Notes: generated by a model from the letters alone, not told the origin. 64,000 nucleotides of DNA from Candidatus Zixiibacteriota bacterium (GCA_020051695.1 JAGVQM010000038.1:46326-110325); one strand, 5' to 3'. Positions 7,856 through 60,700 are shown, counted from the stretch's first letter. A program made the numbers and translations.

Positions 7856-7960
7856 CAATACCCCGCCCGATGCTGTCATCGGCCGGATAGTACACAAACT
7901 CCCCCGGCCGGACAACAGCATATCTCACGCGGATGCGTCCGGAATACGACTTGGCCGGCC

Positions 7961-9793: not shown

Positions 9794-9810
9794 CAAATCA
9801 GAGAGGTGGG

Positions 9811-11568
9811 GTGGTGAAAAAGAGAATATTTTTTGCTTTTGTGGTCGTGGCGGTCGTGCCGGCAGTCATTACCATACTTGCGGCCAACATGTTTGCCCGG
9901 CAGGAACTGGAAGAAATCAGGCGGCGCAACGCCACTACGGGGCTGGCGCGGCTGGATGCCAATGTCGTGGAAGACCTCGCGGCGATGGGTTCGGCGGTCA
10001 AAAACGAAGTCGCCGATTCCCGCTGGCGCCGGTTGTTTTTGCGGCGGTGGCAACTGGGCTCGGTGTTTCAGGCTCAGTTGATCGATCAGTTGGTCGAACG
10101 CTCGGCGCAGGCCGGTTGGGTTTTTTCGGCGATCATCGACACCGACGGTGTCGTGCTGGGCCGGGGCGATCGGCCTTCGTCTTTCGGCGATACGGTGGAC
10201 TATCGCACGGTTTTCGGCACCCATGCGATTACCAAGGCGACCGCAAGCGCCGTGTCGCCGTTTCTCCCGGTGTGGGGTACGGGCGGTCTGCTGGGTATCG
10301 CCCCGATCACTTATGACGATAAGACGCTGGCTTTCCTGCTGGTGGGTAAGCCGTTCACTGCGGATAACCTGCGCAATTGGGTCGGCGGCTGGGCCATCCC
10401 GGCCATGATCGTCGCCTCGGGGGAAATCCTCAATCTGACACCGGATGTCCCCCAGGAACAGATTTCACCGGAAACATTTTCCGCGATATATCATGGTCCG
10501 CCGGTGACCTCGATGAATCTCACCGGACGGCGGTTTCTAATCGGGCGCAAGCACCTGACGGTGCCGACTTCCGGCAAGGCGCCGCTGATGATGCTGTTAT
10601 TTTTTGATTCTGCCCCGGTGGATGCGGCCACGGCCAAGTTGTTTTACGCGATGCTGGCCGCCGGCGGGCTGGGCCTGCTGCTGGCCCTGATTTTTGGCTG
10701 GCTGGTCGCGCGGCTGTTGACCCGGCCGCTGGATGATATTGTCGAGGCGGCCAATCGCATTTCCGACGGGCAATGGGACGCCGATGTGATCAGTTTTTCA
10801 GGGGGCGATGCCGGACGGATGGCCGATGCGTTTAACCGGATGATCGGCGATTTGCGGCGGTCGCGGGACCGCCTGATTCAGACCGAACGATTGGGCGCGT
10901 GGCGTGATGCCGCCCGCAAAGTGGCGCATGAGATTAAAAACCCGCTCTCGCCGATCCAGGTTTCGGCGGAAGACCTTGTTTCGGCTTACAAACCCGGCGA
11001 CCCCGGTTTCGAAAAAATCCTCAGGCAATCGACGGCGACGATTATCGAGGAAGTCGCCGCGATCAAGAGGTTTATCGATGAGTTTTCCTCGTTTGCCCGC
11101 ACGCCGCGGCCGGTGTTTGCGCGTTTTGACATCAAAGACCTGCTCAGCGATGCGGCATCGTCATTTCCCACGGAACACCGGGACGGCCGGATTGCTGTCG
11201 ACACGACCCGCAGTTTGATGCTCACCGGTGATGCCGAACTGTTGAAACAGGCCCTGGTCAACCTGATCAAAAACGGTCTGGAAGCCGGCGGGGCGAAAGG
11301 CGCGGTCACCGTCACGGTAGTCGACGAAGACGATCAGGTGCAGATCATCGTCGATGACACCGGGCCGGGGATCTCCGGGGAGATGAAAGCAAAGCTGTTT
11401 ACCCCGTATGCGACCAGCAAACCCGGCGGGACCGGGCTGGGGCTGGTCATTTTGCAGGGTATCGCGGTCGACCACGGCGGGACTGTCACCGTACGGGAAA
11501 GTCCGGACGGCGGCGCGCGGTTTGTGCTGCAGCTTTTGAAAAACCCGCCGGCGAGGGAACAGCGTTAA
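9811..11568 (+). CDS. sensor histidine kinase, NtrY-like (TM - periplasmic domain - TM - HAMP - HisKA - HATPase)
   Basis: GTG start after GAGAGG. H-box HEIKNPLSPI, G-box TGPGIS…GGTGLGL. Two TM segments flank a periplasmic domain of about 250 aa. Confidence 0.8.
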   Translation: MVKKRIFFAFVVVAVVPAVITILAANMFARQELEEIRRRNATTGLARLDANVVEDLAAMGSAVKNEVADSRWRRLFLRRWQLGSVFQAQLIDQLVERSAQAGWVFSAIIDTDGVVLGRGDRPSSFGDTVDYRTVFGTHAITKATASAVSPFLPVWGTGGLLGIAPITYDDKTLAFLLVGKPFTADNLRNWVGGWAIPAMIVASGEILNLTPDVPQEQISPETFSAIYHGPPVTSMNLTGRRFLIGRKHLTVPTSGKAPLMMLLFFDSAPVDAATAKLFYAMLAAGGLGLLLALIFGWLVARLLTRPLDDIVEAANRISDGQWDADVISFSGGDAGRMADAFNRMIGDLRRSRDRLIQTERLGAWRDAARKVAHEIKNPLSPIQVSAEDLVSAYKPGDPGFEKILRQSTATIIEEVAAIKRFIDEFSSFARTPRPVFARFDIKDLLSDAASSFPTEHRDGRIAVDTTRSLMLTGDAELLKQALVNLIKNGLEAGGAKGAVTVTVVDEDDQVQIIVDDTGPGISGEMKAKLFTPYATSKPGGTGLGLVILQGIAVDHGGTVTVRESPDGGARFVLQLLKNPPAREQR

Positions 11569-24342: not shown

Positions 24343-24679
24343 TCTTAGGAAATTCTGCGCCGAATATTCCACCTAAGATGTTGTCAATCCAGCAGATGGA
24401 TTATATTTTGTATTCGGCTCGCTACGCAGAACCCCGTGAATTCTGCTGCCGGAATCAACTGATTTTTATATTGAACCAACAGGCCCTTTGGGTTTCCTTT
24501 TATTGTGAGTACGTTATTGGGAAAATTGAATAATGAAGAAGTGCGCAAACATCGAGATTTCCGGATATGTAGTAGATAGGACAAGTGAACACCCGGATAT
24601 CGACAGGCCCGGGTCGGACAGGATGAATAGAGAGAGTCGGCATCGGTTCTCACTACAAAAGAGTTGGAGGGAGAAACTC

Positions 24680-26197
24680 ATGAGGAAAATGCTGGGGGTT
24701 GTCAATGCATTGGTTGCCCTGATCATGGTGTTCGCATTGACCGGCAGTTCCGTGGCCAATAACCGGCCCGAAGCGTCCACGCTGTTACAGGATTCTCAGC
24801 GCTACCAACGAATTCTTGAAACAGGGGGCGACTTCTCGTCACAACAACACGCGCTGTTTGAGTTCATCTTTGCCGCCACGGCATCGCCGGCCGGCGACCG
24901 TGCGGGAATTCCCGCGACGGACCGGTTGGCGCGGCCATCGTATGGTTACCTGTACGTTTCAGATACCTGCTATGTCTGGGATGGCGGGCAATGGGTATAC
25001 AGCTCGCGCACGACCTACACGTACGGGACGAACCAATTAATGACCACGATCGTCACAGAGGAGTGGGACGGCGGGCAATGGGTGTATGTCGACCGGTATT
25101 TGTACACCTACGACGGTAACAACAGAATGGCGACGATGACGATGCAAGAATGGCAATCTGCACAATGGGAAAACGTCAGTGATATGACGTTCTCCTACGA
25201 TGGAAACGGGAATCAGATCGAAATGCTGATCCGGAGTTGGGAGGATGGCGGCTGGGTCAATGCGGCCAAGATTACCTCGACCTTCTCCGGCAATTTGGTC
25301 CAGACATCCCTTACGCAAATGTGGGCCGATCCGGATTGGGAAAATTCGATGATGGTCACCTATGCGTACGACGGCAGCGACCGGAGGATAGAGGAAGTGA
25401 CCCAGTTCTGGTTCGGCACAGACTGGACCAATTTATCCCGCAGGACACATGTCTATAACGGCAGTGGTCTGGTGACCGAAACCATTAACCAAAGCTGGCT
25501 GGGCGTAAGCTGGTCCAATCAATCACGGACGACATACGCCTACAACGGCAACGGACAGGAAACGACGGTTACCCAGTATTCCTGGGCCGGGGCGGCCTGG
25601 GTGGAATCCTCGATGTGGCAGTACACGTATAATGGTTCCGGCTACGAAATACTGGCGGTATACTCTTCGTGGTCGGGCTCTTCGTGGGTGGAAACCGAGG
25701 CCGATACCTCCAAATATGTCGGCGACAAGCTGGTCGAGGAAGTCCGCAACCATATCCAATCGGCACAGGTCGACCGGACGCAGTACACCTGGGACGGCGA
25801 TTGTATGGTCGCCGATCTGGACCAGGTGTGGCAGGATGGCGCCTGGGTCAACGAAATGCGGTGTGTGTATGTCTGTGGGTCGGGTTCGGGAATTTTGAGT
25901 GAATCCGAGCAAGGACCCGTGGCGTATTCCCTGGCCCAGAATTATCCGAATCCGTTTAACGCCTCGACCGTCATCCGGTATAGTTTGGACCGTGGTTCAC
26001 CGGTAACGATAACCGTTTATAATCTGCTGGGTCAGACAGTCACCGTTCTGGATGAGGCCTACCGTGCGGCGGGAGTCCATGAAACGACCTGGGACGGCGC
26101 CGATCGGTCGGGTCACGCGGTGCCCAGCGGCATATATTTTTATCGTTTGGCAGCCGGTGAATTCAACGAAGTCCGCAAGATGGTATTGTTGAAATAA
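24680..26197 (+). CDS. secreted repeat protein with T9SS type-A C-terminal sorting domain
   Basis: ATG at 24680 lies 6 nt after GGAGGGAG. Signal peptide. About 10 tandem 29-aa repeats (W-x-G-x2-W-x-N … T-Y-x-Y-D-G-N-G). C-terminus NYPNPFNASTVIRY…GIYFYRL…KMVLLK matches Por_Secre_tail. Confidence 0.8.
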   Translation: MRKMLGVVNALVALIMVFALTGSSVANNRPEASTLLQDSQRYQRILETGGDFSSQQHALFEFIFAATASPAGDRAGIPATDRLARPSYGYLYVSDTCYVWDGGQWVYSSRTTYTYGTNQLMTTIVTEEWDGGQWVYVDRYLYTYDGNNRMATMTMQEWQSAQWENVSDMTFSYDGNGNQIEMLIRSWEDGGWVNAAKITSTFSGNLVQTSLTQMWADPDWENSMMVTYAYDGSDRRIEEVTQFWFGTDWTNLSRRTHVYNGSGLVTETINQSWLGVSWSNQSRTTYAYNGNGQETTVTQYSWAGAAWVESSMWQYTYNGSGYEILAVYSSWSGSSWVETEADTSKYVGDKLVEEVRNHIQSAQVDRTQYTWDGDCMVADLDQVWQDGAWVNEMRCVYVCGSGSGILSESEQGPVAYSLAQNYPNPFNASTVIRYSLDRGSPVTITVYNLLGQTVTVLDEAYRAAGVHETTWDGADRSGHAVPSGIYFYRLAAGEFNEVRKMVLLK

Positions 26198-40205: not shown

Positions 40206-40811
40206 TTACGGGCACTGCACGCACAACGCATCCTGGCCTTTGTACACGAACTTTACCAGGAACTGCACGTCCAGCGGAGTTGTGTTGCCGTCACAATTTA
40301 CATCGCCTTTGCCCCAGGGGCAGTTTTCATAGAGATACAGCGCGTCCAGACTCTGGTACACATACTTCACCAAAAACTGCACGTCCAGCGGAGTGGTCCC
40401 GCCATCGTGGTTCACGTCACCTTTCAGACCGCAATCGCAGTCCTCGGCGCCACCGGCCCCGTACCAATACCCGATACCGGCTTCGTAATTAGTGCTGGTC
40501 GCGTACCCGATTACTGATTGCCCGACGGAGAACATCATCTGGTAATTGGTCGATGACAGATTATCCCCGCCGGCGTTGATCGACTGCCAGGGGATGGCGT
40601 ACGCCCCCGGTTCCATCGCCGCTTCCGCGGTGAATGGCGCAATCGCCTGTGGCTGGTGTACGTCCTCCCCGCTGAGGGCGGGCTCTGCAACGTGAACCGG
40701 TGTAGCCGCCTTCGCGGCTGTTTTGGTGTCAACCCGCTCACCGCTGACCATCACCGTCAATAGGAGCAAGAGCATGATCGCCAAAACACCGATTAGGACT
40801 GATCGTTTCAT
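40206..40811 (-). CDS. secreted protein with C-terminal type-I dockerin repeat pair
   Basis: Signal peptide. Two Ca-binding dockerin segments (GDVNHDGGTTPLDVQFLVKYV and GDVNCDGNTTPLDVQFLVKFV; D1-N3-D5-D12 pattern). Lies 9 bp downstream of the fibre gene. Confidence 0.65.
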   Translation of the reverse strand: MKRSVLIGVLAIMLLLLLTVMVSGERVDTKTAAKAATPVHVAEPALSGEDVHQPQAIAPFTAEAAMEPGAYAIPWQSINAGGDNLSSTNYQMMFSVGQSVIGYATSTNYEAGIGYWYGAGGAEDCDCGLKGDVNHDGGTTPLDVQFLVKYVYQSLDALYLYENCPWGKGDVNCDGNTTPLDVQFLVKFVYKGQDALCVQCP

Positions 40812-40820
40812 ATTTTTCTC

Positions 40821-42974
40821 CTATTTCCTGTCTGCCAGGAGTCTTTCCAACGCGACCTGCAGTTCGGCCAGTTTCGTTTCGAGTTGGTCGATGCGGGCGT
40901 CTTTGGTTTCGTTTTGTGTTTTCAATTCCTTAATGGCCTCGACCAGCAGCGGCGCCATGTGGCTGTAATCCACCGCGAGGTAGCCGTCGGCGTCGGGAGA
41001 AACAAGTTCCGGCACGATGTCTTGTATTTCCTGCGCCAGGAAACCGAGATGCGCCTTGTCGTCGAATTGCCGTTCCGGATATTCATCCCGGTTCCAGGTA
41101 TGCGTCACCCCGCGCAACTGCCCGACCGTAGCCAGCGCGCCGGTAATCGGGGCGATCTCGCTTTTGAACCGGGCGTCCGAGGTCTCATGCACGGTCGTGC
41201 ATTCGATGTCGCCGTTGACATCCAGCGGATAGGACGGAGAAATCGTGCCGATGCCGACAGAACCCGTGCCGTCGTCGCACAGAAAAACGTCCCCCGATCC
41301 TCTATTGATCACGAGGTTTTCGGCTGCGCCGTTATATCGCGCCATGATTTCGTTGTCATCCAGCGTGATGTTGCGTCCGGCGGCAGATCCCACGGTCACG
41401 TACCCGCCGCTGCTTAGTGTGACATCACTCCCACCCACGACATGCAGCGGGACGTTCGGACTGTTGGTGTTGATCCCCACACCGCCGGCAGCACGAATGA
41501 GAAATTGATCTGATGCCGAGGACGTGAAATCCGCATCGGTATCATCAGCCCAGACAAATGTCCCGTCGTGATTGGCCTTGGCACGTCGCCCCGCGGCCAA
41601 TGAATACTGTCCCGCTGCTGTATTAGCTCTGCCTCCGGGGACAGTCGCATAACTGGCGCTGGCCGTGTTAATGTAGCCGCCGCCAATGACTGAACAATAG
41701 CCGCTGGCCGTGTCCGCGCACCCGCCGCCGATGCTCGCATAATCGCTTAGCAGAGTACCGGTATTATTTTTTTGCCCGCCGCTGATCGTGGAAAGGGCGC
41801 CGGTCGTGGTATTATTCCATCCTCCCCCGATCGTCGATTTGGATCCGGTGGCCCGATTGAATAACCCCCCCGAGATCGTGGTGTTGTCCGATGAGGCGAC
41901 ATTATGTGAACCGCCGGCGATAGTCGCATACAATCCTGAAGCAGTGTCAAGAGAACCGCCGCTGATCGTTGCCACATCATTGGCGGCGTAATTCAAGTAA
42001 CCGCCGGCGACCACCGCCTGGTTGCCATTTGCATGATTCAGGATACCGCCGCTTACCACCGCCCCCAAATCACCGGCCACGTTTCCTGCCCCCCCCGCCA
42101 CCACAGATACCCCGCCGGATGCCGTGTTGTTATATCCTCCACTGACCACGGAGGAATCACCGGTCGCTTCGTTGTCATACCCGAGGACGTTGGCCCAAAC
42201 ACCCGATGAGGCATGGTTTTGTCCCATGGCCAACCGGCCCTTGCCGACAATATTGCCGTCGGGCAGCAGGTGGCATACCGTGTCGAGGTCGGATGTACCA
42301 AAAAGCAGTACGCCGCCTTCGCGGAACTCCACTTTGCGGGCGCCGGTGTCCTGCGTGCCTCGGGCCAGTGTGGAAGATTCATATAACGTGATTCCCGGAC
42401 CGTCCTCGTCGATAGAAATGTTAATTCTCACATCGCCATTTTGATCCGTGACAGAAATGCCGCTTGAAGAACAATACACCTGCTCTTCGTCCCCGCCCGC
42501 GCCGCGAATGACGATCTGATCGGCGCCGATGATGGTCGAATCACCGGTGGGATTGACCACGATGACACTCCCGGTGATCCCACCCCCGGCCGCCCCCGCC
42601 AACGAACCAACGCGATAGGCATACCCCACCGATACGATCTGCGCGCGGGGACTCATTTCCGGATCGGCTTCCACCTTAACGCTGAGGAATGCCTGCCCGG
42701 CAAACGCAGAATCGGGGATGGGGGATACCGCTCCCAAAAGCGTGATAAACGAGCCGTTGCCGTCGGGAGTAATGACCCTCGGCTCCGACCACAACGAATC
42801 GCCGTCCGTTTCCGCATTCCACAGGGCAAAAACCACGTTGACGGGGACGGTTACCGGCTGGCCCCCGCCGTCGACCAGCCGACCCTGATAATTAAGCATT
42901 TGCGGCACTTCAGCCATTGCCACGCCAACCAGCAACAGCGCGGCACCCACGCACAACACGAGGCGTAACGACAT
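40821..42974 (-). CDS. secreted beta-helical fibre protein with C-terminal peptidase-S74 intramolecular chaperone domain (phage tail-fibre/endosialidase-type CIMCD)
   Basis: ATG at 42974 lies 7 nt after GGAGG. Signal peptide MSLRLVLCVGAALLLVGVAMA. About 12 15-residue repeats (xxTIsGGxxNxAsGx; YadA-head/tail-fibre beta-helix like). C-terminus HETSDARFKSEIAPI…LRGVTHTWN…LGFLAQEIQDIVPELV…DGYLAVDYSHMAPLLVEAIKELK matches the Ser-Lys autoproteolytic chaperone domain. Confidence 0.8.
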   Translation of the reverse strand: MSLRLVLCVGAALLLVGVAMAEVPQMLNYQGRLVDGGGQPVTVPVNVVFALWNAETDGDSLWSEPRVITPDGNGSFITLLGAVSPIPDSAFAGQAFLSVKVEADPEMSPRAQIVSVGYAYRVGSLAGAAGGGITGSVIVVNPTGDSTIIGADQIVIRGAGGDEEQVYCSSSGISVTDQNGDVRINISIDEDGPGITLYESSTLARGTQDTGARKVEFREGGVLLFGTSDLDTVCHLLPDGNIVGKGRLAMGQNHASSGVWANVLGYDNEATGDSSVVSGGYNNTASGGVSVVAGGAGNVAGDLGAVVSGGILNHANGNQAVVAGGYLNYAANDVATISGGSLDTASGLYATIAGGSHNVASSDNTTISGGLFNRATGSKSTIGGGWNNTTTGALSTISGGQKNNTGTLLSDYASIGGGCADTASGYCSVIGGGYINTASASYATVPGGRANTAAGQYSLAAGRRAKANHDGTFVWADDTDADFTSSASDQFLIRAAGGVGINTNSPNVPLHVVGGSDVTLSSGGYVTVGSAAGRNITLDDNEIMARYNGAAENLVINRGSGDVFLCDDGTGSVGIGTISPSYPLDVNGDIECTTVHETSDARFKSEIAPITGALATVGQLRGVTHTWNRDEYPERQFDDKAHLGFLAQEIQDIVPELVSPDADGYLAVDYSHMAPLLVEAIKELKTQNETKDARIDQLETKLAELQVALERLLADRK

Positions 42975-43313
42975 GGAACGACCTCCAATAAATTTAAAGG
43001 GGATGACTTGAATACGATACATCTTCGGCCCGATTCAAAAAGCACGGGTTTGTATTTCACCGTCACCCTGAGATGAGACCGTCAGGGCAAAGCAGTACAA
43101 CAGAACATATTGTCAAAAAATACAATACTCAAAGAAGATGAATTGGGCAAGGAATTTCCGAATTATCGAGCGTAATTCGGGTAAAATATGGACTGTTGTA
43201 GTCCATTATTCAATATATTTCGTTATAATCTTTTGCGGAAGACCAAAGGGGGGGCATGACGACAATGGCCGATAGAGCGCGGCGGCAGAGGTGCATGCGG
43301 AGGGCTCTGCAGT

Positions 43314-43841
43314 CTATTGTCCTGCGGGCGGCCCCCTAAGCAAATGAACATCATCGATCCACGCGGTACCGGTCCCCTCAACCACGAGGTTGAGTTTCAC
43401 GCTGTCCGGGTTTTGTCCCTGCTGGAGAAAAAACGGCGTTTCCTCGACCGACCAATCAGTGGTGCCGCTGAGCGGGGAAAGCAGATCGCGGGAAAAAAAT
43501 TCCCCCAGTTCCGGAAAATGGCACAACATTTCCAGGTATACGCGGCCGCGGACCTCGGCGGTACGCACCCGGGCCCGGTAGACCAGCGTGGCGTCTTCCA
43601 CGTCGATATCGCTTAGGGCACAGAGTCTGATGACTATTGGTTCGACGGCAGTGATCTGCAATGATCCGTTGCCGTCGACAGATGTTTCCCGGTCAATATT
43701 GACGCTTTGGCGGGCGATGATTTCAGACAGTTCATCCAGCGGGAAATGGCGCAACTCGACAAGTTCGTCGGCAGGTTGCGCGCACCCCACCAACAGGAAT
43801 ATTGCAACAACTGCGGGCACATGCCTCCGGGTTGATTTCAT
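43314..43841 (-). CDS. lipoprotein, hypothetical
   Basis: ATG ATG at 43844/43841 after GAGGA. Lipobox FLLVGCAQ. The longer upstream ORF in the track is antisense to the kinase gene and was discarded. Confidence 0.5.
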   Translation of the reverse strand: MKSTRRHVPAVVAIFLLVGCAQPADELVELRHFPLDELSEIIARQSVNIDRETSVDGNGSLQITAVEPIVIRLCALSDIDVEDATLVYRARVRTAEVRGRVYLEMLCHFPELGEFFSRDLLSPLSGTTDWSVEETPFFLQQGQNPDSVKLNLVVEGTGTAWIDDVHLLRGPPAGQ

Positions 43842-43979
43842 CATATCCTCACGCGGACGATAGCGGGTTGTAACCACATGGCCGTTTATTTTCATTATCG
43901 GCCGGTATGGGGCCGATCTTGCAGTCAAATTCCGGGGGAATTGGCCGAAAATATAGTACAAGAGACCAAAGGCCGAAAT

Positions 43980-45650
43980 ATGCCCACGACAGACTCTGTT
44001 ATCCCCTTGCGGTTCGGGGAGTTTATTCCCGAGGAGAAGATCGGGCAGGGGGGAATTTGCGAAGTCTACCGCGCCCGTCAGCCCTCGCTGGACCGCCGGG
44101 TCGCGGTGAAAGTATTGCACCATCACCTGCTGCAAAACGCCGGCCTCCGCCGCCGTTTTGTGCAGGAGGCCAGGATTCTGGCCCGGTTGTCCCACCCGCA
44201 CATTATCCATGTGATCGATGCCGGGACCGAGGGGGAGTGGGTGTATTATGTGATGGAATATGTCGAGGGCACTGATTTCAAAAAAATCCTGCAGGAGGGG
44301 TACAAGACCATCCCCGAAAAATTGGACATCCTCATCCAGACGCTGAAAGGGCTGGAGTATGCGCATAACAACGGTGTGATCCATCGGGACCTGAAACCGG
44401 CGAACATCATGGTCGATATGGCGGGGCATGCCCGATTGGCCGATTTCGGTATCGCGCATTTGTTCGCGCAGCCCGGCGGCGCCGAGGAAACCCAGACCGG
44501 GGAATTGATGGGCACACCGGCATATATGGCGCCCGAACAGCGGACGTCCGCCAAAAACGTGGATGCCCGTTCGGACATTTATTCGATGGGCGTCATTTTG
44601 TATGAGGCGGTCACCGGCAAAAAGCCGGTCGGGCGCGTCCGCCCGCCGTCGGAACTGAACCCCGACGCGCCGAAATTCCTCGATGAAATAATCCTGACCT
44701 GTCTGGAGCAGGAACCGGAAAAGCGCCACCAGACCGCGGGGGCGTTGAAAGATTTGCTGTTGGAGACCGCGCTGCAGCCGACGGGCATTGTCGAGGTGGC
44801 CGAACCGACGTTTGCCGGAGTGGAGGATTTTATCGGTTGCTGCCGTTTCCTAGATACATTAAGCAAGGACGAAGCGTCCCAGACGTTCCTTGTGGAAAAC
44901 ACCAGTGACCACAAATTGTATGTCATTAAAAAAATCACCGGCCGGAGTATCGAACTGAGCAGTCTGCGCCGGCTGGCAGTGTTGAAACATCGCCATATTT
45001 TGAATATTCACGGCGCCGGTTCGGACCTGAAAAAAACGGTGGTGGTCACCGACTATGCCCGGGGTGGGTCACTGGCCGACCGGCTGGCCCGCCGCTGGAA
45101 TGAACCGGAGGTCACCCGTTTTTTATATGAAGCGGCGCAAGCCGTCGATTTTGCGCACAAAAACGACGTCATCCACGGCAACCTGCGTCCCTCCAATGTC
45201 CTGTTCGACGATCAAGGGAGCGTGTTGCTGGCTGATTTCGGCATCCCGCCCCTCGCGGCAAAGCGCAAGCCCTGGTGGCGGCCGCCCGAACGGAATAATT
45301 CCCGGGAGGGAGATTTGTTTGCGCTGGGCGCGCTGGCGTACCGGATGCTGTTCGGCGATCGGCCGCGCTGGTTTGCGGAAGATCACCTGCATTTTCCCAA
45401 AGTGCAGACGTTTGTTTCCCGCGATACCCGCCGGATGCTGATGCGGTTGCTGCATCAGGACGCCGCAAAGCGCTGCGCCTCGGCCGAGGAAATCCTGTTC
45501 CAATATGCGCCCCGTACAAAAGATAAGACGAGTATCCTGCCGCTGGAACAGGACGGGCGGAGATTCTCGCTGCCCGTGTGGGTCTGGTTGATAATTGCGG
45601 GGGTAGCGGCGGTTGCGGGGGCGGTGCTGGCGTTCTGGCGTGTGCTGTAA
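43980..45650 (+). CDS. tandem Ser/Thr protein kinase - pseudokinase with C-terminal TM anchor
   Basis: Domain 1 is Hanks-type: GxGxxxxV…VAVK…HRDLKPANI…DFG…APE. Domain 2 keeps VIKK and DFG but has HGNLRPSNV (catalytic Asp changed to Asn). Final hydrophobic helix LPVWVWLIIAGVAAVAGAVLAFW. Confidence 0.75.
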   Translation: MPTTDSVIPLRFGEFIPEEKIGQGGICEVYRARQPSLDRRVAVKVLHHHLLQNAGLRRRFVQEARILARLSHPHIIHVIDAGTEGEWVYYVMEYVEGTDFKKILQEGYKTIPEKLDILIQTLKGLEYAHNNGVIHRDLKPANIMVDMAGHARLADFGIAHLFAQPGGAEETQTGELMGTPAYMAPEQRTSAKNVDARSDIYSMGVILYEAVTGKKPVGRVRPPSELNPDAPKFLDEIILTCLEQEPEKRHQTAGALKDLLLETALQPTGIVEVAEPTFAGVEDFIGCCRFLDTLSKDEASQTFLVENTSDHKLYVIKKITGRSIELSSLRRLAVLKHRHILNIHGAGSDLKKTVVVTDYARGGSLADRLARRWNEPEVTRFLYEAAQAVDFAHKNDVIHGNLRPSNVLFDDQGSVLLADFGIPPLAAKRKPWWRPPERNNSREGDLFALGALAYRMLFGDRPRWFAEDHLHFPKVQTFVSRDTRRMLMRLLHQDAAKRCASAEEILFQYAPRTKDKTSILPLEQDGRRFSLPVWVWLIIAGVAAVAGAVLAFWRVL

Positions 45651-46014: not shown

Positions 46015-46662
46015 TCAGACGAGTATATCGAACAACGATTTTTGCGTGGTACTCTGGTTCAGGTATTGCAGCAGCGCATAGTTGTTGGTCTGTTCGTCCT
46101 CGTCTTCCTGCTGTTCAAGCAGCTCCAGCAAATCGGCAAACACCGTGTCCTGCGTGGCGCCGAGGCCTGTTGCGTCCGCCGTTTCGGGCGGGCCCATCCG
46201 CTCCAGGGGCGGCGGGGCCGGCCGTTCCGAGCTGTCGATTTTGCCGTCTGCGTTGGCATCCAGCCGCTCAAAGATCTCGTCGACATCCAACGACAGGCCG
46301 GTCTGTTCTACCAGTTGTTCGGACATGGCCGCCATTTCGGTCTTGTCGATCGCGCCGTCGCCGTCAGTGTCCATCTCCGAGAACGGATCGTTTCCCATCC
46401 GGCCGCCCGGCGGCGGCGGTGGGGCAGGCATCTCCGTGTCGCTGAGCAGACCGTCCGCGTCGGCATCCAACAGTGCGAAAATCTCGTCGATGCTGGACGT
46501 CTCGCCGGTTTTCTCTGCCATCCGGTCAACCATCACCTGCAATTCGGTTTTGTCGATTCCGCCGTCGCCGTTAGTATCCAACCGGGCAAAATGCTGTTGC
46601 CGCATTCGGGCCATGGCCGCGGTATCCATCCCTGTGCCGAAACCGCTGATTCCACTGATCAT
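46015..46662 (-). CDS. EF-hand calcium-binding protein (4 EF-hand loops, Pro-rich linkers), no signal peptide
   Basis: Loops DTNGDGGIDKTE, DADADGLLSDTE, DTDGDGAIDKTE, DANADGKIDSSE. Confidence 0.7.
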   Translation of the reverse strand: MISGISGFGTGMDTAAMARMRQQHFARLDTNGDGGIDKTELQVMVDRMAEKTGETSSIDEIFALLDADADGLLSDTEMPAPPPPPGGRMGNDPFSEMDTDGDGAIDKTEMAAMSEQLVEQTGLSLDVDEIFERLDANADGKIDSSERPAPPPLERMGPPETADATGLGATQDTVFADLLELLEQQEDEDEQTNNYALLQYLNQSTTQKSLFDILV

Positions 46663-50763: not shown

Positions 50764-51779
50764 ATAATCATTATGGTGCCCATGACACGAGCGCATGGGG
50801 GTGTTTTTCGGCCCTTGGGGAGAAAATTAAAAAAGTGTCGCCTGATGTAAAAAAACCCTTGCTCTCTCTCCGGCCCCCGGTAATATTGGCAGACCTGGTG
50901 CTTGGAGGCACAATCGGGAGGGTTAAAAAAGTATACGGCGGGTTAAATCCGCCGGCGTTGAATCCGATAACAGGATAGACCCATATGCCGTGGGGAATTA
51001 TGCATTTGGGGTGAGGGAAAATATTTAAGTACGTACGGAAAAACATCTTGACAAGCCGTAGGCAGGCGATTAGAGTTCACTCAATTTGCCGGGCCCTATC
51101 GGCGGAAGTCGTGGCTGTAGCAGGTTCGGGAGGGTCAAATACGCAGACAGGCGGTTAAGTTGTCCGACTGTTTGCCGAGGCATATGTCAGAAAGGAATTA
51201 ACGGTTTTCGGCGGTGCGGGCTGAAAACTGTTGCAATTTCCCGGGGAGCGGGAAAGCCGAAACGAGGCGGTCAAAGAGCTCAGGGGCATTTGGCCGGTTG
51301 AGTTTTCGGCATAATTCAGAACTTGGCATTTACACAATGTGGTCAACCACGGAGGGTTGCCCAGGCCGGCACCGGCAAATGGATGGAATCAGAGAACATT
51401 GCGGTGCCCACCGGATTTAATCCTAATCGCCTTTCACGGTCCTGTGCGGGGGCCGCAATTGCGAGAGTAAACGGATTTGCTCGGGATGGTTCCGGATACG
51501 GTATTGTTTTTTGCGACATCTATTCAGTTACAAGCAGGGGGGTAGGCATGACCGATTTTGCCCGTTTTCTTCCATTTTTTGGGAAATTTATATAAAAAAT
51601 GAAGAGGTATATTAATGTATTGTAGGTCGAAAGGAGGGTCTTGCGACAACACACCGCGGAACATGCGGTCTGTTATGAACTCTGGAAACAAGCCCGGACA
51701 ATCGCAGCTGTTTATTACGCCCGGACAATCGTATCAAGACTTTAAGAAAAAACATCCCTTCAACAAAGGGGGAAAGTTG

Positions 51780-54700
51780 ATGAAACCATTCTCTTTGAGA
51801 GGGTTGGCAGTTTTAACTGCCTTGCTTCTGGTCCCGCTGTTTGCGGCATCGGTTTCCGCGCAGCAGACCACCTGGTATTTTACCGGGACAGGCATTGAAG
51901 TCAGCAAGGTCGAAGACGGTTCTTGCCGCGTGATCAATGCCCAACCCGGCACAACGTTATCCGACTCCATGGTCGTTATGCTTCTCCGGTTTGCCAATAC
52001 CTGGAACCCGGCGCAGAGTGACGTCCTGGATACGGTCCGTGTTTTCAGTACCTGTTCGGATTCCGGCATTGTCCAAGCCGTTTATCTGTACCGGGAAACG
52101 GGCGTCGGCACTCCGGGGTTCGGTGATTTTTCACCGGGCACGGACGCGCTGTTGGGTACCGTTAATTCGTTCGCTAATGGATTCGATAACGGCGATAGTG
52201 CAGTATTCAATCTGAACTATACCATCGCCGCCGGCGACTCCATGTTCATGTATGTCGTTTTGAACCTTAGTGACGGCGTCGTGGGCGATCTGGATTATCT
52301 GGGTTCCGATATCGGCGTTAAAATTTACGGCGATCCCCCGGGAACCAATACCGGTCCCGGAATTATTTTTGTAGATGCCCGTTATGGCCCGACGGACGTG
52401 GACGGACCGGGCGGCGTTTACGAAATTATCGCGAACGACCCTGACAACCAGGGTTATCTGGAAACCCGCACGATGCCCTACTATTTTGAGACGGGCACTG
52501 TCGGTTCCGATATGCGCATGGGTGAGGTTAACATCACCTACAGTGGTTCGGTGGCCCCGATGAAAGTGGTCAGCGGGACCAGCGACAACGAAGTCGTGAT
52601 GGGCATCATCATCGACAATTCGCGCAGCACCGTCGCTGATGATTTGACCGGTGTGAGAATTCGCAGCCGCATGACGCAGGAAAGCTCGATTTCCCGTCTT
52701 GCGGTCTACAAGGAAAGCACCTGTGTCGTCCCGACGGGTCCAACCTCGTTCGGCACGGGCGACATCCTTTGGGCGCAGAATTCCTCTCCGGGAACCTTCG
52801 ACTGGGGAACTGACCCGGCATCCGGCGAATATCTCAATTTGCCGATTCAAGCCGGCATGGGGAATATCGCGGCCGGTGAAATCGTTTATCTGTATGTTGT
52901 TGTTGATCTTAACGAGATGGTGATCAACGCGGACGAAACCAGCCGCAACACCTACAACTGGCATAAAGTCGGCGTTGCGCTGAATGATCAGGCGGGGACA
53001 ACAGTCGATCCCGAGGCGTTGACTTTTGATAACGCCGGTATCGGTCCTCGTGTGACAGCTGATGGCACCCGGATTGTGGTGTACAACAATCTGGCGTACT
53101 GGAGCGGCACGCATACCATCGTGGGCAATTCCCCCATCTTGATCGATCAGGATCAGGCCTGGGACGCCGATTCTTTGATTGGGCTGTATGTTTTCAACCT
53201 GACCGACGGCAGCTCCGGTTTGATTACCGATAACGACGATTCGACCGTAACCGCAGCGTTGACCGGCGGCGCCCAGAACGACTGGGATATCGGCGATCAA
53301 TACTATATCGGTACGCTTCCCGGCCAGCCGCTGTTGATCGACTCGAAGCCGCCGGTGATCCAGTGCCTGAACGACCCGTTCGATACGACCTGGCCGAACT
53401 GGGAACACTCGGATGACGGCGGTGATACCCCCGGCTACGGTATCGGGACAATCGACAACCTGGATAATATTCTTGTCAGGTTTGATATCGATGACGACGG
53501 TCCGGGTGCGTTGGTCACGGTCGGCAACACTCGGCCGCGCGTTGATTTGCGCGTGTTCGGCCAGACTGTCGGGACGCATGTCCTGATGGACAACGATTCG
53601 CTGGATATCTGGGAAGCGGACATGACGCCGATCCCGGATGCGGATGAATTGACTGCGTATCGCACCGACACGCTTTCCGGCAACAAGTTGCTGCAGGTCC
53701 TGGCTCAGGACGATGCCGGCAACCTGGCTACATTCTATTGCCCGGTCATGCGTGACATCGATACCCGGCGGCCGAGCTTTACGGGTGTGCCGATCACCTT
53801 CGATTTCGCCCCCGGCGGCGACGTGAACGGTGACGGTGTGGCCGCGATTGGCGACATACTCCGCATGACCGCCAATATGGGCGCCAACTGGAGAAACTGG
53901 AACCGTGAAGACGGCCAGGGTGTTGAAATTCGGAGTCTGGTCGCTTATTTCCATGGGGATTGGGGCTTCACGCAGCAAGTGCTGACCGATCCGTCGGGTG
54001 ACAACCAGAATTTCTCCGTTGATTTCACCCTCGCCCCCGGTGGTTGGGACAGTGTGTTGACGACGGTAGCGGCGACGATGTGTTCGCTGGTCGCTATCGA
54101 TAACGCCGACAACGTGGCGTTCAGCACCGAGGGTACGCTTACCGCGACCCCGTTTGCCGGTGCGGTAATCGATAACATGCCGCCGACACCGGTTTCCGCG
54201 CTGTGGACTCTGTGGAAAGACATCCCCACCAATAACGTCGTTAATATCGGCGATACGGTGCGGTTCAGAGTCGACATGAACGGGATCACCGATGTGGCCT
54301 CGGTCCACACCGACCTGTTTATTGCCGGTCTAGGTGGAAACCACTATGTCCAGCTGGCCGACAGCGGCAACAATATCTGGGTCTTGAAACACAAAGTTCT
54401 GGATCCGCTGTTGAACAATTCCGGCGATTTTGCCAGGGATGAAGCGCCGCATACCGATGTGTGCCCGACCGTGCCGTATATCCATGGCTCGGCGGACAGC
54501 GTCATCATCGTATCTACCGACTTTTTCGGCAACGTCGATACGACCTGGTTGTATGCGCCGACCTTCCCGCATCTGGATTGGGCGCCGGCGGAAACAGTGA
54601 CTATCGACACCAAAATCCCGCCGCCGGTCGGCAGTCTGACGGCCACGCCGGGTCCGGAGGGTTCGGTGCGGTTGGATTGGACCAATGCTACCGACGGCGC

Positions 54701-57700
54701 TGCCGTGGGTAACCTGAAGGACGGTCCGTGGACCTTCGAAATCTGGTGGGATGCGGGTGCAGGTGCCGATCCGAATCTGAAATTGGCCGAGGTTTATGAA
54801 GCAACGGCCTCGGCTCCTTGCGCCAACATTACCTCCTGGCGTTCGGATACGACGGTATCGATGCAGGCGAATTTCACCTGCGGCGAGACCTATCGCTTCA
54901 AGATCAAAGTCCTGGATAACGCCAACAACCCGTCGGCTTGGTCGACGACTGTTGCCGTTACCACCGACTGCGCTGCGCCGACCGTTTGCGTGTTCCAGCC
55001 CGAGGAAGAGGGCGGCATCTACAGTTGCAATATGTGCACCTGGGATGGTTCGGACAGCACACAGGGGTTGACTATTTACGTCCAGCCGTTCGATCCCGAG
55101 AGCCAGGACGTTCAAGCCATCGGCACGGTCTTGGTCCGCGTGAAAATGCGCGGTGGTGTTCCGGGCCCGTGGACGTCGGTTGGCTTTACCGATGTCGGCG
55201 CGGGTGCGCCGTTCACCTACGCGTTGTTGCTTGATTGTGAAGACCTCGACGCGATCGTCGGTACTGAACTGACCGATGTCCTGGAATTGATTATCCTGGG
55301 CGCCGATGAGGCCGGTAACGTCACGACGATTGCCGAAGCGCTGGCCAACTGCGGCCCGTGGGAGTTCTCGTGGTCGACCTCGTCGATCGAAGGCGAAGTC
55401 GTCACGATCAACGGCGACCTGCCGGAATACCAGGCCTACTGCGATCTGCATGGCTGGGAAATCACCGGCGATGCCAACACCGTGTCGATCACTCTCACCG
55501 GCGGCGTGATGCCCTACAAGGCCCGCGCTTATGCCGATGACGATGAGAACACCGGCAGCAATGACCTGATCTGGTACGCCGAGGGGCTGACCAGCGCCAC
55601 CACCACCTTCAACCTTGATGCAACCGGTTGGGATAAAGGTGAGGGGACGCTGGATGTCGAGTGGTGCGATGCGACCGGCGCGTTCACTTCCGCGACCGTG
55701 AAGCTGTGCGTGCTCGATGAGATCGCCCCGTGCGCTCAGGTGATCAACCCGATGGACGGCAAGTGCATCCGTCGTGCGCACTCGGTACTCGATCCGGTCC
55801 CGGTGACCGTCGAGATCGATCCGCTGGCCAACTGCCTCGATCCTAACGGCGTGGTCAAGGTCGACTACGAATGGGCGACCGAATGTTGTATCGGTACCTA
55901 TTCGGAGATTGTGAGAGTTCGCGACAGTATCCCAGTCCCATGCGGTCTCCAGGATTCTGCCGAGTGCGACACGTTCTATACGGGCGGCGTCATGGACTCG
56001 ATCAACTGCATCAATCCTAGTGAGATTTGCTGGCATATCTTCTGGTATACAGACACGCTCGAAATCGACTGCGACACAGCCGATTGGAATAACTTCGCCA
56101 TCATGCCGGGCGACTCGATCCATAGCGATCTGGTCACCGCTTGGTGGTTCAATAAAGATGATCTGGCCTGGGTCACCGAATCCGGTACTCTGATCTATAT
56201 CCGGGCGCGGGTGTATGACGACCAGGGCAACATCTTTGTCACCGAATGCGTGCAGGTCTGCGTCGATATCGACACTCCGCCGCTGTGTTTGCGCAGCCCG
56301 GAAGAGTGTATCGCGCTGGACGGCATTCCTCGCCTTTCCGGTACGGGCGTCACGATGGTGGCCGACCTGAACTGGGCCGAAGGCAATGTTGACGACATCG
56401 AAGATGTCTTCCTGTATCGCAAGAAATCAACCGAAGCCGATCGGTGGGAAAACTGGACCTCCCTCGGCGCGGGCGTGCCCGCCACCAACTCCAGCATGTG
56501 GCGGTGGGACACTGTCAACGTTTCCGGTCTGACCGATCAGGTTTACTACGACTTCCGGGTCATTGCCAAGACGATCTGGGGCACCTGGTCGTACGACATG
56601 AACGGTGACGGGCAATTCGATCACAACACCTTCGATACCACCAACTGCGACGCCGTGACCTGGTTCATCGACCACTCGGCCGAGAACATCTGGATCGATA
56701 CGGTCTGGACCACGATCGACGGCAACGAGTTGGTTCAGCCCAATGCCAGCTGCACGCTGAGCGATCCGCGGGGCTGGGCCTGGACGCAGTGGGGTAACGA
56801 CATCACCGTCCAGCCGTTGGTTGAGCCGCTGGGCCTGACCGACGACATCGTCAAGGTCACCTGGACCTTGTACAAAGCCGGTGAGGGCTGCTATTCCTGC
56901 GGTTGCGGCAACGGCTTTGGTGAGCCCGAAACCGGGACCTGTGATTCGAAGGTGGTGCGGATTAACGAAGGCGATAATGCGCTGAATTCGGTTACTTTCA
57001 ATCCCGCCGAGATGGCGTTCTGGATGACCATTGCTGATGGTTTCCAGACGGTCGTCCTCCATGTCCAGGCCGAAGATGCCTGCGGCAACACCAGTGAGGA
57101 CTGCATCGAGCTGTACCTGCTCGATATCGACCCGACCGAGGCGATTATCGTCGATCCGAAGAACCGCGAAGTGTTCTGCCAGGATCATACTAATGGCGGT
57201 GGCGGTATCGAAGTCACCGCGATGACGCTCCTGGACGAAAACTTCGTCAAAGCCGTCTTTGCCTACAGCACCAATGGTACGAACTGGATACCGTTTGATT
57301 CCGTGACGAGTGCCACGACCAACGGCAACCTGTCTGGGATGTGGTACCCGCACGCCCTGGGGCTGACGGACGGCATGTATTACCTGACAGTCTGGGCCGA
57401 GGACAATGCCGGCAACAGGCAGGCGACGGATTACCCGATTATCGTGTATCTGTCCTGCGGTGTGCCGACAGTGACCCTGACCTACCCGACCGCCGACATG
57501 TTCGTTGGCTGCCCGCTGGAGTTGACCGCGACGGCGACTGCGCCGGATGCGTACAACTACATCACCAAGGTGGAGTTCTTCTACCAGGCGGTGGGCAGCG
57601 CGACAGCGACCAAGATCGGCGAAGACCTGTATTCGTTAGACGGCATTTACAGTTACGCCTGGGATCCGGCGCTCAATGGTGATTACTACATCTGGGCCAA

Positions 57701-60700
57701 GGTGACCGTGAAATCCGGCGCGACCGCTGTCTCCGAGATGGTCTGGGTCAAGGGTGACGGCACGGCTCCTGAAGTGTACATGGTTGAAGTCAATGACGAC
57801 CACTCCAACGGCGGCGCGGGCGACCCGACAATCGTCACCGCGGGCGACGTAGTCCCGATCGTCGTCGAGGCGTGGGATCGGCTGCAGGCGACCGGTTACG
57901 GTCCGGAAAACAACTGCGGCCTGGACAGCGTCAAGATTTACGTGAAGCAGGGTTCGACGGTTATCTTCGGTGAGCTGACCACGCCGGTCGCTTCCGTGGA
58001 AAATCAGTTCTCTGCTGACTGGCCGACTACCGGTCTGCTGAACGGGACCTACGAGGTGTATGCAGTTGCCTCCGACGGCTGCTGCAACAACGCGACTTCC
58101 GCGAGCTGGTATGTCTCGATCGTCAACCCTATGCCGCCGGTGACCATCGCCGTGGACGAAGCTGTCCTGGTATGTGGCATGTGGTCCACCAACGAGGATG
58201 AGATCACCCTCGTGGCGGTTCCGGGTGATCTGGCGGACATCGATTCCGTCCAGTTCTGGGCGAACAGCACCGATCAGTCTGATGTGTACGACCAGTACAT
58301 GCTCCTGCCGGGCGCCGTTTCCTTCAACGGGGTCTACTTCCTTGAGGTGGATGTAACCCTGTGGGAAGAAGGCACCTACCGGCTCCGGGCAGTGGTCTGG
58401 ATCGACGGCAAGTGCACGGACGACGGTAACGATTCCGATACCGAGTTCGATGACTTCACCTTCGATCCGAACACCAAAGTCTGGCAGATGCTGTTGAACA
58501 TCGATCGTTCGGCCCCGACGCCAACCTTCACGCTGGATGCGTCAGTGATTGAGGAAGGCACGGAGTTCGAAATCACCGTGGCGAACCCGCCGTGCGGCAG
58601 TTGCGATATCGATCACTACGAATACGGTATCGTGACCATGGCCGGCAAGTACGGTACGCGTGCGGAATATATTACCGACGAGTGCACGTTCTCGTTCGAT
58701 CCGGTCGATTCCGGCGCCGTGACGATGCACAATTGCTACTGGGGTGGTTATATCCGCGTGACCGCGGTCGACCCCCTGGGCAACGAGGCATACTACCAGA
58801 TCCCGGCCGAGATCCTGGGCGTGGCCGACGGTTACGCCAAGATCACCTCGCCGGCGCATGGTGAGTATATCTCCGATACCGTCGCGATTACCGCTTCGGT
58901 CGTCGGTACTGAAGGCGAGCTGACGTACTACTACAGCGCGCTGGGCAGCACCGCTCGGACCGAAATCGATAACCCGTTTGCTACCAACGACCTCCCCGAC
59001 GGTCAGTACCTGTTGTGGGTCGGCAACAATGGTAACATTCACAGTATCGAGTGCGCGGTACCGGTGAGTATCGTCAACGACTGCGCGACCGTTGTTCTGG
59101 AAAATCCGATGCCGTATGGCACTTGCCATGACGGTCACGTGATGTTCATCGGCGGTACGGTCGATCTGCTGGCCGAAGTCACCCTGACTTCGAGCGTCCC
59201 GGTCGACTCGGTCGTATTCAAGTACAAGACGCTGGATGCTCCGGGCGGGCACACCGATACCGAAGATCCGGCAGATGGCTGGGTGACAGTCGGCATTGAC
59301 CGCTATAAAGCCACGTCCTGGGATGTTTCCTGGAACACGGCCGACAGCGGCAGCGTCGTACCCGATGGTTACTATGTGATTATGGCCTTCTCCTACGACC
59401 GTTCCGGTCAGGAGTGCCATTCGAATTCAATCACCGTGGCCGTCGACAACACCAGGCCGTATAGTGAAATCTCTGAAGTCAACGGCGACCAGACCACTTC
59501 GACGTGTGCCGACGTCACCGAAGGCACCAACGTGGAAATCATCGCCGTGGCGGCTGATGACCGTTCACCGCTGGGTCCGGGCGATGCATACAATTCCTGC
59601 CCGCGGTACCTGCAGTTCTTCGCGGGTTATTGCGGCGAGGGTGGCGGCGGCAACGTCGACATCGTCTGGGTTATGGATGCGTCCGGTTCGATGGGCGACG
59701 AACAAGCGGCAATCGGCGGTCAGATCAACCTGTTCATGGATGGTCTGGGCGGCCTGGATTACAATCTGGCCGTGACCGGATTCGAATCCGAAGGGTACTT
59801 CTCGTCGGTGAACGATTCGACGAAGTCCGTACCGATGGCCCTTGACGGTTCGTATGCGGCGGCCCTGATGGGCAACGGCGCCTGGACGACCAACCAAACG
59901 GTCTTCAATACCATGATCACCGGGGTTGGCGTGGGCGGCGGTACGGAAGACGGTGCTGGCTCGCTGATGGAGACGCTCGAACACTACACCTTCCGTTCGG
60001 GCGCCAAGAAGTACTTCATCCTGATCACTGATGAATCCGGCGATGACAACGAGCTGGAAGCGCAGTGTATCGCGTTGATGAACCAGGAAGGCGTCACGGT
60101 CCATGTGGTGTCCGACCCCTCGTTCACCACGTACTCCAACATCGCGGCAGCCACTAATGGCCAGGTGTACGATATCACCGCGGCCAACTGGGGCGCGCTG
60201 TTGGGCGTTCTGGCTTCGCAGATTTCGGGCGGCGGCGCGAACGCGACCCCGTTTGATCCGATCTGGGGCAAGGCAGTCGATCTTGACACCGATGCGCCGT
60301 CGGTTCACTGGAACACCACAGGACTGGCTCCGGGTGAATACTGCTTGTGGACGGTCATCACCGATAACGTCGGCAACCAGTATACCTCGGGACTGACGAC
60401 GGTCTGCGTCTATGACAAGACCCCGCCGGTGGCGTGGATTGCCGGTTTCGGCGATGCAACCCTGGCCTGTCCGACCTGCGAATCGCACCGGATCTACGCG
60501 ATGACCTGCGATACCGACGTCAAGTCGATCAAATTTGAAATTCGGCCTGACGGTTCGACCAGCGAATATGACTGGACGACCATCGGTATCAGCAACATGA
60601 TCGATTCCTCGCTGTGGTATACCGATTGGAATCCGTGTGGTATGGACGGTGCCTACGACTTGCGTGCGGTGCCGGCTTCCGACCACTACGCCACCGGTAC

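Follow-up and report, generated by a model that had tools for sequence, protein, structure and literature searches.

A putatively self-cleaving MAT-type surface fibre in a Zixibacteria-like genome and a small secreted partner protein as its probable anchor

Among described systems, the closest to the one reported here is that of the mosaic adhesive trimer (MAT) fibres of Bdellovibrio, of which Caulton et al. (2024, PMC10769870) described 21, all encoded on the chromosome and all carrying a beta-rich domain of ~130 amino acids (aa) after the signal peptide. Thirteen of them end in a Peptidase_S74 (S74) domain with the motif SDxxxK, for which self-cleavage was demonstrated. The same authors mentioned relatives in other bacteria, described a "mosaic" shuffling behavior of MATs, and stated that the surface element bound by the N-terminal domain is unknown. 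Here we describe two genes on the minus strand of a 64,000-nucleotide stretch of DNA (the window) from a Zixibacteria-like metagenome-assembled genome (Candidatus Zixiibacteriota bacterium, GCA_020051695.1, JAGVQM010000038.1:46326-110325). The larger gene (40821..42974) encodes a 717-aa surface fibre of the MAT type, predicted to be trimeric and to have S74 as its C-terminal chaperone, and the smaller gene (40206..40811) encodes a 201-aa partner composed of a signal peptide, a Pro/Ala-rich linker, a conserved segment referred to here as the SxNY domain, and a dockerin. The analysis strongly supports a MAT-type fibre that is exported by Sec, retains the S74 dyad intact, and shares its operon with a secreted protein of the SxNY-dockerin type. 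The reading of the locus as a two-gene operon for such a fibre and its probable anchor is, on balance, somewhat favored.

The arrangement of the two genes is compact (all fibre and partner coordinates refer to the minus strand). The fibre start at 42974 has GGAGG 7 nt upstream and agrees with the start of all aligned homologues. A spacer of 9 bp (40812..40820, GAGAAAAAT) lies between the TAG stop codon of the fibre gene and the ATG of the partner gene, and a GGAG sequence upstream of the latter overlaps the fibre stop codon. This overlap and the short spacer suggested an operon whose two genes are translationally coupled. The intergenic region of 339 bp that precedes the fibre gene (42975..43313) has a GC content of 44.5%, compared to ~56% locally, and is probably the promoter region.

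The fibre belongs to the known MAT/S74 kind, and it has the same architecture as MATs of the S74 subgroup. It starts with a Sec signal peptide (residues 1-21, 42912..42974), read from the sequence as MSLRLVLCVGAALLLVGVAMA followed by EVPQ with cleavage between AMA and EVPQ, and hydrophobic N-terminal leaders are found in all 21 aligned homologues. The conserved N-terminal domain (N-domain; residues ~22-125, 42600..42911; VPQMLNYQGRL...PR..IVSVGYAYRV) is homologous to that of Bdellovibrio MATs, retains P24, N28, Q30, G31, L33, W62, P109, and R110 in the homologue alignment, and would be the cell-proximal docking end. Twelve GGxxNxAxG repeats with an exact period of 15 residues (residues 279-461, 41592..42140) make up a beta-roll shaft of the UspA1/YadA-head type, the GGxxNxA motifs themselves lying between residues 279 and 447; the repeats match the head of Moraxella UspA1 (PDB 3pr7, E=1e-19) and, weakly, LbR_Ice_bind in Pfam. 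A conserved junction and distal stalk follow (residues 462-598, 41181..41591; FVWADDTDADFTSSASDQFLIRAAGGVGINTNSPNVPL ... GSVGIGTISPSYPLDV), with invariant columns among the homologues, and this part would form the mature tip once the chaperone is cleaved off. Two GxVGIxTxxPxxxL motifs (residues 497-510 and 571-584) precede the S74 domain and resemble the MAT/MYRF capping-loop consensus (PMC10769870).

The S74 intramolecular chaperone occupies residues 599-690 (40905..41180), and self-cleavage is predicted N-terminal to Ser599. Pfam detected Peptidase_S74 (PF13884) at residues 599-658 with E=2.2e-14 and 53.9 bits against a cut-off of 22. The SDxxxK motif reads S599-D-A-R-F-K604, and neither S599 nor K604 varies among 21 full-length homologues. 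The C-terminus also aligns to the intramolecular-chaperone domain of MYRF (PDB 7dc3, E=0.0026). The last part of the protein is a heptad-like helix (residues 691-717, 40824..40904; IDQLETKLAELQVALERLL), which is found in most homologues and would leave together with the chaperone. The C-terminus thus consists of S74 and the helix, and Pfam gave no match to a YadA-type beta-barrel anchor in the fibre. A preliminary description of the locus had named the Sec signal peptide, about twelve head-type repeats, and a complete S74 domain, and these features are borne out.

Compared to the S74 subgroup of Bdellovibrio bacteriovorus MATs, for example Bd3182, the window fibre has in common the signal peptide, a conserved beta-rich N-domain of ~100-130 aa, a long trimeric beta-helical shaft (predicted here), the C-terminal S74 domain with SDxxxK, and a chromosomal, non-prophage gene. 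The two differ in their hosts, a predator and a Zixibacteria-like organism, and the window shaft is built of UspA1-head-type 15-residue repeats. Furthermore, the window system has a downstream SxNY partner gene, whereas no partner has been described for Bdellovibrio MATs. The NCBIfam model NF053851 (Bdello_MAT_N) was matched by 18 of the 21 aligned family members (best E=1.4e-9) and essentially no other family was matched, which shows homology of the fibre and MAT N-domains at the superfamily level. The window fibre itself scored E=0.0088 and 15.8 bits against a curated cut-off of 60, and on this measure it would fall outside the Bdellovibrio subfamily as curated. Homologues of the fibre number more than 5,133, and NCBI PGAP uses the name 'tail fiber domain-containing protein' for such proteins in Zixibacteria, Armatimonadota, Planctomycetota, Verrucomicrobia, and Kiritimatiellia. 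Thus, the earlier view of a domesticated phage-type fibre is right as to a chromosomal, non-prophage gene with a phage-type S74 domain, but the kind had already been described: chromosomal S74-terminated fibres with a conserved N-domain are the MAT family, so that the locus is not, as had been proposed, without a described counterpart.

Three other groups of proteins share parts of this architecture. Phage S74 tail fibres and tailspikes, such as the K1F endosialidase and the T5 L-shaped fibre pb1, have the C-terminal chaperone with its Ser/Lys dyad and a stalk of the triple-beta-helix type; in contrast to these, the window fibre has a Sec signal peptide and no virion context, and its N-domain and partner are unrelated to baseplate-attachment domains. 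The trimeric autotransporter adhesins Moraxella UspA1 and Yersinia YadA have GGxxNxAxG head repeats of 14-15 residues in common with the fibre. They differ in their YadA-type C-terminal membrane anchor, which the fibre lacks; here, trimerization would proceed via S74 and anchoring would be N-terminal, via the partner. Homology to the eukaryotic myelin regulatory factor (MYRF) is confined to the self-cleaving S74-type trimerization domain, and MYRF is, unlike the fibre, a membrane-bound transcription factor.

The partner protein was examined in an alignment of 27-28 homologues, which resolved four parts: the signal peptide, a variable Pro/Ala-rich linker, the SxNY segment, and a Cys-bracketed dockerin. 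The SxNY domain (~50 aa, residues ~66-120, 40452..40616; YAIPWQSINAGGDNLSSTNYQMMFSVGQSVIGYATSTNYEAGIGYWYG) has the consensus YxIPWQSINAGG..SSTNY....SVGQSVIGYATSxNYEAGIGYWYG and the invariant residues W75, G81, G82, G97, Q98, G102, G112, G114, and W116. Profile searches gave no match to it in Pfam, PHROG, or the PDB. AlphaFold2 runs with alignments of 27 and 108 sequences gave values of the predicted local distance difference test (pLDDT) of ~45-55: the domain stayed below 50 as a monomer in the full-length model and had a mean of 55 with 108 sequences, so that a fold search on this model is not meaningful. A domain that is conserved yet not predicted to fold alone is as expected of a module that folds on binding or oligomerizing, although this is no proof. 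The family comprises 15,652 of 1.84 billion clusters at E<=1e-3, a frequency of ~1e-5. Five proteins of 320-510 aa (P0294, P0307, P0309, P0351, and P0382) carry three to four tandem matches to the SxNY profile, and multi-domain versions therefore exist. The module appears to be undescribed and is very widespread, and it is a credible candidate for the MAT anchor.

The C-terminal part of the partner (residues ~122-201, 40209..40448) is a Cys-bracketed type-I dockerin fold with two DxNxDG Ca-loop/helix repeats, in which D132, D143, D170, and D181 are invariant. Pfam matched Dockerin_1 (PF00404) at residues 130-188 with E=1.2e-6 and 29.1 bits against a cut-off of 22.9, so that this domain and S74 both exceed their gathering thresholds. 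An AlphaFold2 model of residues ~122-200 reached a pLDDT of 92-97, and a Foldseek comparison of it with the PDB returned solely cellulosomal type-I dockerins, at target-normalized TM-scores of 0.75-0.82 and with rmsd values between 2.3 and 2.7 Å. The fold and the duplicated Ca-binding loop-helix motif are therefore common to the window partner and cellulosomal dockerins, and the identification of a 201-aa dockerin protein 9 bp downstream of the fibre in the preliminary description is upheld. The differences are a non-cellulosomal context, five conserved bracketing cysteines (C125, C127, C164, C197, and C200), and the lack of a cohesin among the scanned ORFs nearby. At Zixibacterial loci, secreted proteins that are unrelated (BNR propellers, PKD, subtilase, and FG-GAP) carry the same dockerin module at their extreme C-terminus, and the module thus acts like a general surface-display tag; it would be a lineage-specific surface-attachment module. 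The fibre/SxNY pair is often flanked there by dockerin-ended secreted proteins of 430-770 aa with BNR propeller, PKD plus DUF7619, subtilase, or FG-GAP domains (loci L007, L008, L009, L014, L018, and L022).

The two genes occur together in other genomes. Three metagenome contigs (L001-L003) encode a fibre with 50% identity and a small protein with 63% identity to those of the window, adjoining rplY, just as the window pair adjoins rplY/prs. A genome with an unrelated chromosomal context (L004, GCA_964520555.1) encodes a 944-aa fibre and a 162-aa dockerin protein. Conservation of the pair in two different contexts supports the linkage of the partners. A search for the small protein in 185,579 species genomes yielded 22 loci, from Zixibacteriota (some labeled "Ignavibacteria") and three Anaerolineae; neighborhoods in this and the following scan were searched with domain hidden Markov models built from our own alignments. 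A gene for a fibre or an N-domain protein was directly upstream of the small protein in 15-16 of the 19 loci with enough upstream DNA, which bears out the synteny of the pair in relatives. In the Anaerolineae (L024-L026), the upstream protein has the N-domain without S74, and the small protein (~90-100 aa) is SxNY-only and has no dockerin. These loci suggested that the conserved pairing is that of the N-domain with SxNY.

A second, independent scan started from the fibre only. With an alignment of 10 fibre sequences, the best 80 of 564 metagenome loci were taken, of which 60 were evaluable for SxNY. An SxNY gene was present inside the fibre cluster in 36 of the 60 (31 directly downstream, 3 directly upstream, and 2 elsewhere), often overlapping the fibre gene or within tens of bp of it. 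Given a family frequency of ~1e-5, this adjacency is not due to chance. Tandem arrays of two to four fibre genes terminate in a single SxNY gene. Such tandem paralogues are frequent (27 of the 80 loci; L032, L037, L051, L082, L034, L045, and others), and some of them have the N-domain without S74, in parallel with the S74 and non-S74 subgroups of Bdellovibrio MATs.

Co-variation of the two proteins was assessed in 28 non-identical adjacent pairs from pairwise similarities, by Spearman correlation and a partial Mantel test. The similarity of SxNY domains correlated with that of the neighboring N-domains (Spearman 0.59) and not with that of the junction region of the same fibres (0.10); N-domain and junction similarities were themselves not correlated to any extent (0.06), and the partial Mantel test gave p=0.001. 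This pattern would fit co-evolution of the N-domain and SxNY, and a physical docking of SxNY to the fibre N-domain may be proposed from it.

Across lineages, SxNY proteins keep the domain and vary in what follows. A signal-peptide-like N-terminus was found in 54 of 59 SxNY proteins, and in most lineages the SxNY domain begins at the predicted cleavage site. Seven of the proteins contain Dockerin_1 and four a Por_Secre_tail; the others have Chloroflexi tails or further types. The Cys-bracketed dockerin is Zixibacterial, and outside Zixibacteria SxNY is kept and this dockerin is exchanged for other C-terminal modules, so that the dockerin, which had been regarded as the defining feature of the partner, is not. 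A planctomycete-type dockerin follows SxNY at L041, L082, and L100, and the Por_Secre_tail sorting domain of the type IX secretion system (T9SS; TIGR04183, E=7.9e-12) at L035, L060, L064, and L069. Chloroflexi-type proteins of ~90-105 aa (L024-L026, L040, L089, L093, L102, L105, and L108) end in a short ...YLPLVLR... tail. This tail, ...Y(L/I)PL(V/I)LR..., is too short to form a transmembrane helix, is not represented by any Pfam or NCBIfam model, and may act either as a sorting signal or as a donor strand. Verrucomicrobia/Planctomycetes-like proteins (L051, L055, L075, L083, and L096) carry a beta domain of ~70 aa ending in ...FYRLR.P or ...PAGN(L/R/K)F(F/Y)RL(R/K)xP, which had no family match, and larger domains are attached to SxNY at L032, L036, and L053. 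At L099, SxNY is embedded at residues ~795-857 of an FG-GAP repeat protein, given as a 1,016-aa stop-to-stop open reading frame (ORF; 6802-9849); this ORF starts inside the 3' end of a fibre gene and extends downstream of it.

The only curated family that SxNY domains matched is NF058579 (CPR_pilus_PamT) of NCBIfam, to which 15 of 29 diverse SxNY domains aligned at positions ~27-77 (best E=1.7e-8). The Pam pilus of the Candidate Phyla Radiation (CPR) is predicted to have PamT as its tip pilin, and a tail-fibre-like gene is reported to be consistently co-localized with the pam operon, although the preprint draws no connection between this gene and PamT (Troman et al. 2026, bioRxiv 10.64898/2026.03.03.709456). 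About 50 residues past the PamT signal peptide are homologous, weakly, to the SxNY domain; a truncated immunoglobulin (Ig)-like pilin domain then follows in PamT and a dockerin in the window partner. The window partner does not pass the full-length model (21.5 bits against a cut-off of 240), and only model positions ~23-77 align. That SxNY is a general docking module for MAT-type N-domains across bacteria, and the missing fibre anchor once fused to a dockerin in Zixibacteria, a T9SS sorting domain in Bacteroidota-like lineages, or short tails in Chloroflexi, and in the form of PamT in CPR, is a tentative generalization, for which the chances fall a little short of even.

The following mechanism is proposed. 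The fibre would be exported by Sec, in keeping with the signal peptide read from its sequence. By analogy with the family, the S74 domain would first nucleate the beta-roll shaft's trimerization and would afterwards be released by self-cleavage at Ser599 via the Ser599/Lys604 dyad, a step suggested by family knowledge and the conserved residues, with release of ~119 residues. Cleavage may expose the distal stalk as an adhesive tip. The co-translated 201-aa protein would serve as an adaptor, whose SxNY domain would bind the fibre N-domain, probably folding only on binding, and whose C-terminal dockerin would fix the complex to a putative cell-surface receptor. In other lineages, SxNY may be joined to the attachment device of that lineage, such as a T9SS sorting domain, a planctomycete-type dockerin, or the short Chloroflexi hydrophobic tail; further fusions of this type would be those with the beta domain, seen in Verrucomicrobia-like contigs, and with the PamT pilin domain, for which the homology is weak. 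The adaptor role is suggested by the 9-bp spacing, the conservation of the pair, the adjacency, and the co-variation, and the anchor role by the signal peptides of SxNY proteins together with their lineage-specific surface-sorting C-termini.

The neighbors of the pair in the window are housekeeping, signaling, and surface-protein genes. One flank encodes HisRS, phosphofructokinase, SOD, NfeD/flotillin, Wzi, IspE, SpoVG, Prs, and L25 (ispE, spoVG, prs, rplY, hisS, pfk, and sodA), and the opposite flank a Ser/Thr kinase, an EF-hand protein, a beta-helix lipoprotein, an M20 peptidase, and a 3,675-aa Ig-rich protein. The gene next to the probable fibre promoter region (43314..43841, minus strand) encodes a 175-aa lipoprotein with the lipobox LVGC and no match in Pfam, PHROG, or NCBIfam. 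Its homologue (74% identity) occurs only in the close relatives L001 and L002, where a TonB-dependent receptor gene lies between it and the fibre gene. For both reasons, it was rejected as a third component and is probably a neighbor outside the fibre module; of the three-gene unit suggested previously, only the fibre/dockerin pair stands. Divergent from the lipoprotein gene is that of a 590-aa Ser/Thr kinase (43878-45650, plus strand) that has a transmembrane segment at its C-terminus and contains two kinase-like stretches. The EF-hand protein (46015-46662, minus strand; 215 aa) matches EF-hand_5 (E=1.8e-19) with four EF-hand loops and, marginally, Dockerin_1. A signal peptide is lacking, so that the protein probably stays in the cytoplasm and has no relation to the fibre. 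The 3,675-aa ORF (51615-62642, plus strand) has weak matches to Big_3_3 and Big_7 only and encodes a giant Ig-rich surface protein; profile scans of it gave no dockerin, cohesin, SxNY, or MAT N-domain match. A 554-aa protein (24533-26197, plus strand) has a T9SS C-terminal sorting domain (Por_Secre_tail/FlgD_ig), which indicates that the organism has T9SS cargo, and yet its SxNY protein bears a dockerin; neither the window fibre nor the window partner has a Por_Secre_tail in Pfam.

Several other explanations of the locus have to be weighed. S74 domains are typical of phage fibres, and many phage tail-fibre PHROGs match the fibre, with E values down to 2.5e-27, as would be the case if the locus were simply a tail fibre of a prophage or phage remnant together with an accessory gene. 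These PHROG matches cover residues ~283-715 only, whereas the N-domain and SxNY had no PHROG match and no tblastn match in 50,697 phage genomes, and the back-translated SxNY motif GTIGQPDAG was absent from 2.9 million viral contigs. The three viral-contig relatives of the fibre (L027-L029, IMG/VR) match in the junction/stalk region only and have neither the MAT N-domain nor S74. Furthermore, the fibre has a Sec signal peptide, the pair sits in the same rplY/prs neighborhood in relatives, and GC content is even across the window. Nearly all window ORFs of >=150 aa were scanned by Pfam, and the unidentified ones also by PHROGs; among them, neither a portal, terminase, baseplate, or integrase gene nor any other gene for phage structure, replication, or lysis turned up, and there was likewise no cohesin, in line with the preliminary description. 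On these scans the prophage reading was rejected, and it is effectively refuted. That description had instead favored a Ca-dependent cohesin-dockerin system of fibre assembly, with the EF-hand protein and the giant adhesin as further parts. The dockerin fold with its two Ca-loop repeats is real, as is the EF-hand protein, and dockerin-tagged proteins cluster around the pair at other Zixibacterial loci. However, the scanned ORFs hold no cohesin, the EF-hand protein has no signal peptide, and at other loci the pair is accompanied neither by this protein nor by the giant adhesin; the dockerin-like loop claimed for the adhesin is not matched by any dockerin or cohesin model, and other lineages swap the dockerin while keeping SxNY. 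Such a system is improbable.

The gene linkage and co-variation would be the same if the SxNY protein were not the final anchor but an assembly factor, a secretion escort (for example, piggy-back via T9SS or another route), or a minor subunit of the fibre base. The fibres have no recognizable outer-membrane export signal, whereas some SxNY proteins bear a T9SS sorting domain, and the SxNY domain is disordered alone in the AlphaFold2 model, both of which would suit these roles. On the other hand, T9SS sorting domains and dockerins normally keep their carrier on the surface, which suits an anchor at least equally, and a single SxNY gene per fibre array suits a shared receptor; escort and anchor roles are moreover not mutually exclusive. 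Taken by itself, a role of this kind seems rather unlikely. The pair might also be merely co-regulated surface proteins without direct interaction, in keeping with the many lone SxNY genes and the many fibre loci that have none. The fixed position of the SxNY gene (directly downstream in 31 of 36 cases, often overlapping or within tens of bp), a link kept across at least five lineage-specific architectures, a co-variation specific to the N-domain, and a very large enrichment over the background frequency speak against this, and simple co-regulation is improbable.

The anchor reading itself has to be set against several observations that weigh against it. No cohesin or other dockerin receptor was found among the scanned ORFs of the window, and the fibre has a Sec signal only, with no recognizable signal for export across the outer membrane. 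About 40% of the evaluable fibre loci have no detectable SxNY gene, and several SxNY genes stand alone amid housekeeping genes (L005, L016, and L112-L115), so that the association is frequent and not obligatory. The metagenome counts come from the best of 564 loci, and the 80 loci include near-duplicates (L096-98, L062/63, and L080/83). The Bdello_MAT_N and PamT matches lie far under the curated family cut-offs. Finally, the co-variation would fit equally well a co-inherited N-domain/SxNY cassette with distal fibre parts shuffled, that is, recombination and not contact.

Self-cleaving phage-like fibres are common chromosomal surface organelles in many uncultured phyla (>5,000 homologues), and only the Bdellovibrio examples have been studied, for which, as their authors state, it is not known what fastens the fibre to the cell. 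The fibre of this locus and the dockerin as such are ordinary, and the interest lies in the SxNY partner. A small and widely conserved partner would make the question of the fibre anchor directly testable, with a variable end that matches the way of surface attachment in each lineage. If the anchor reading is true, it would give a function to a very large family of "hypothetical" secreted proteins of 100-250 aa. It would also suggest how CPR pili carry an adhesin, namely, as a tail-fibre-like adhesin mounted on the tip of the Pam pilus.

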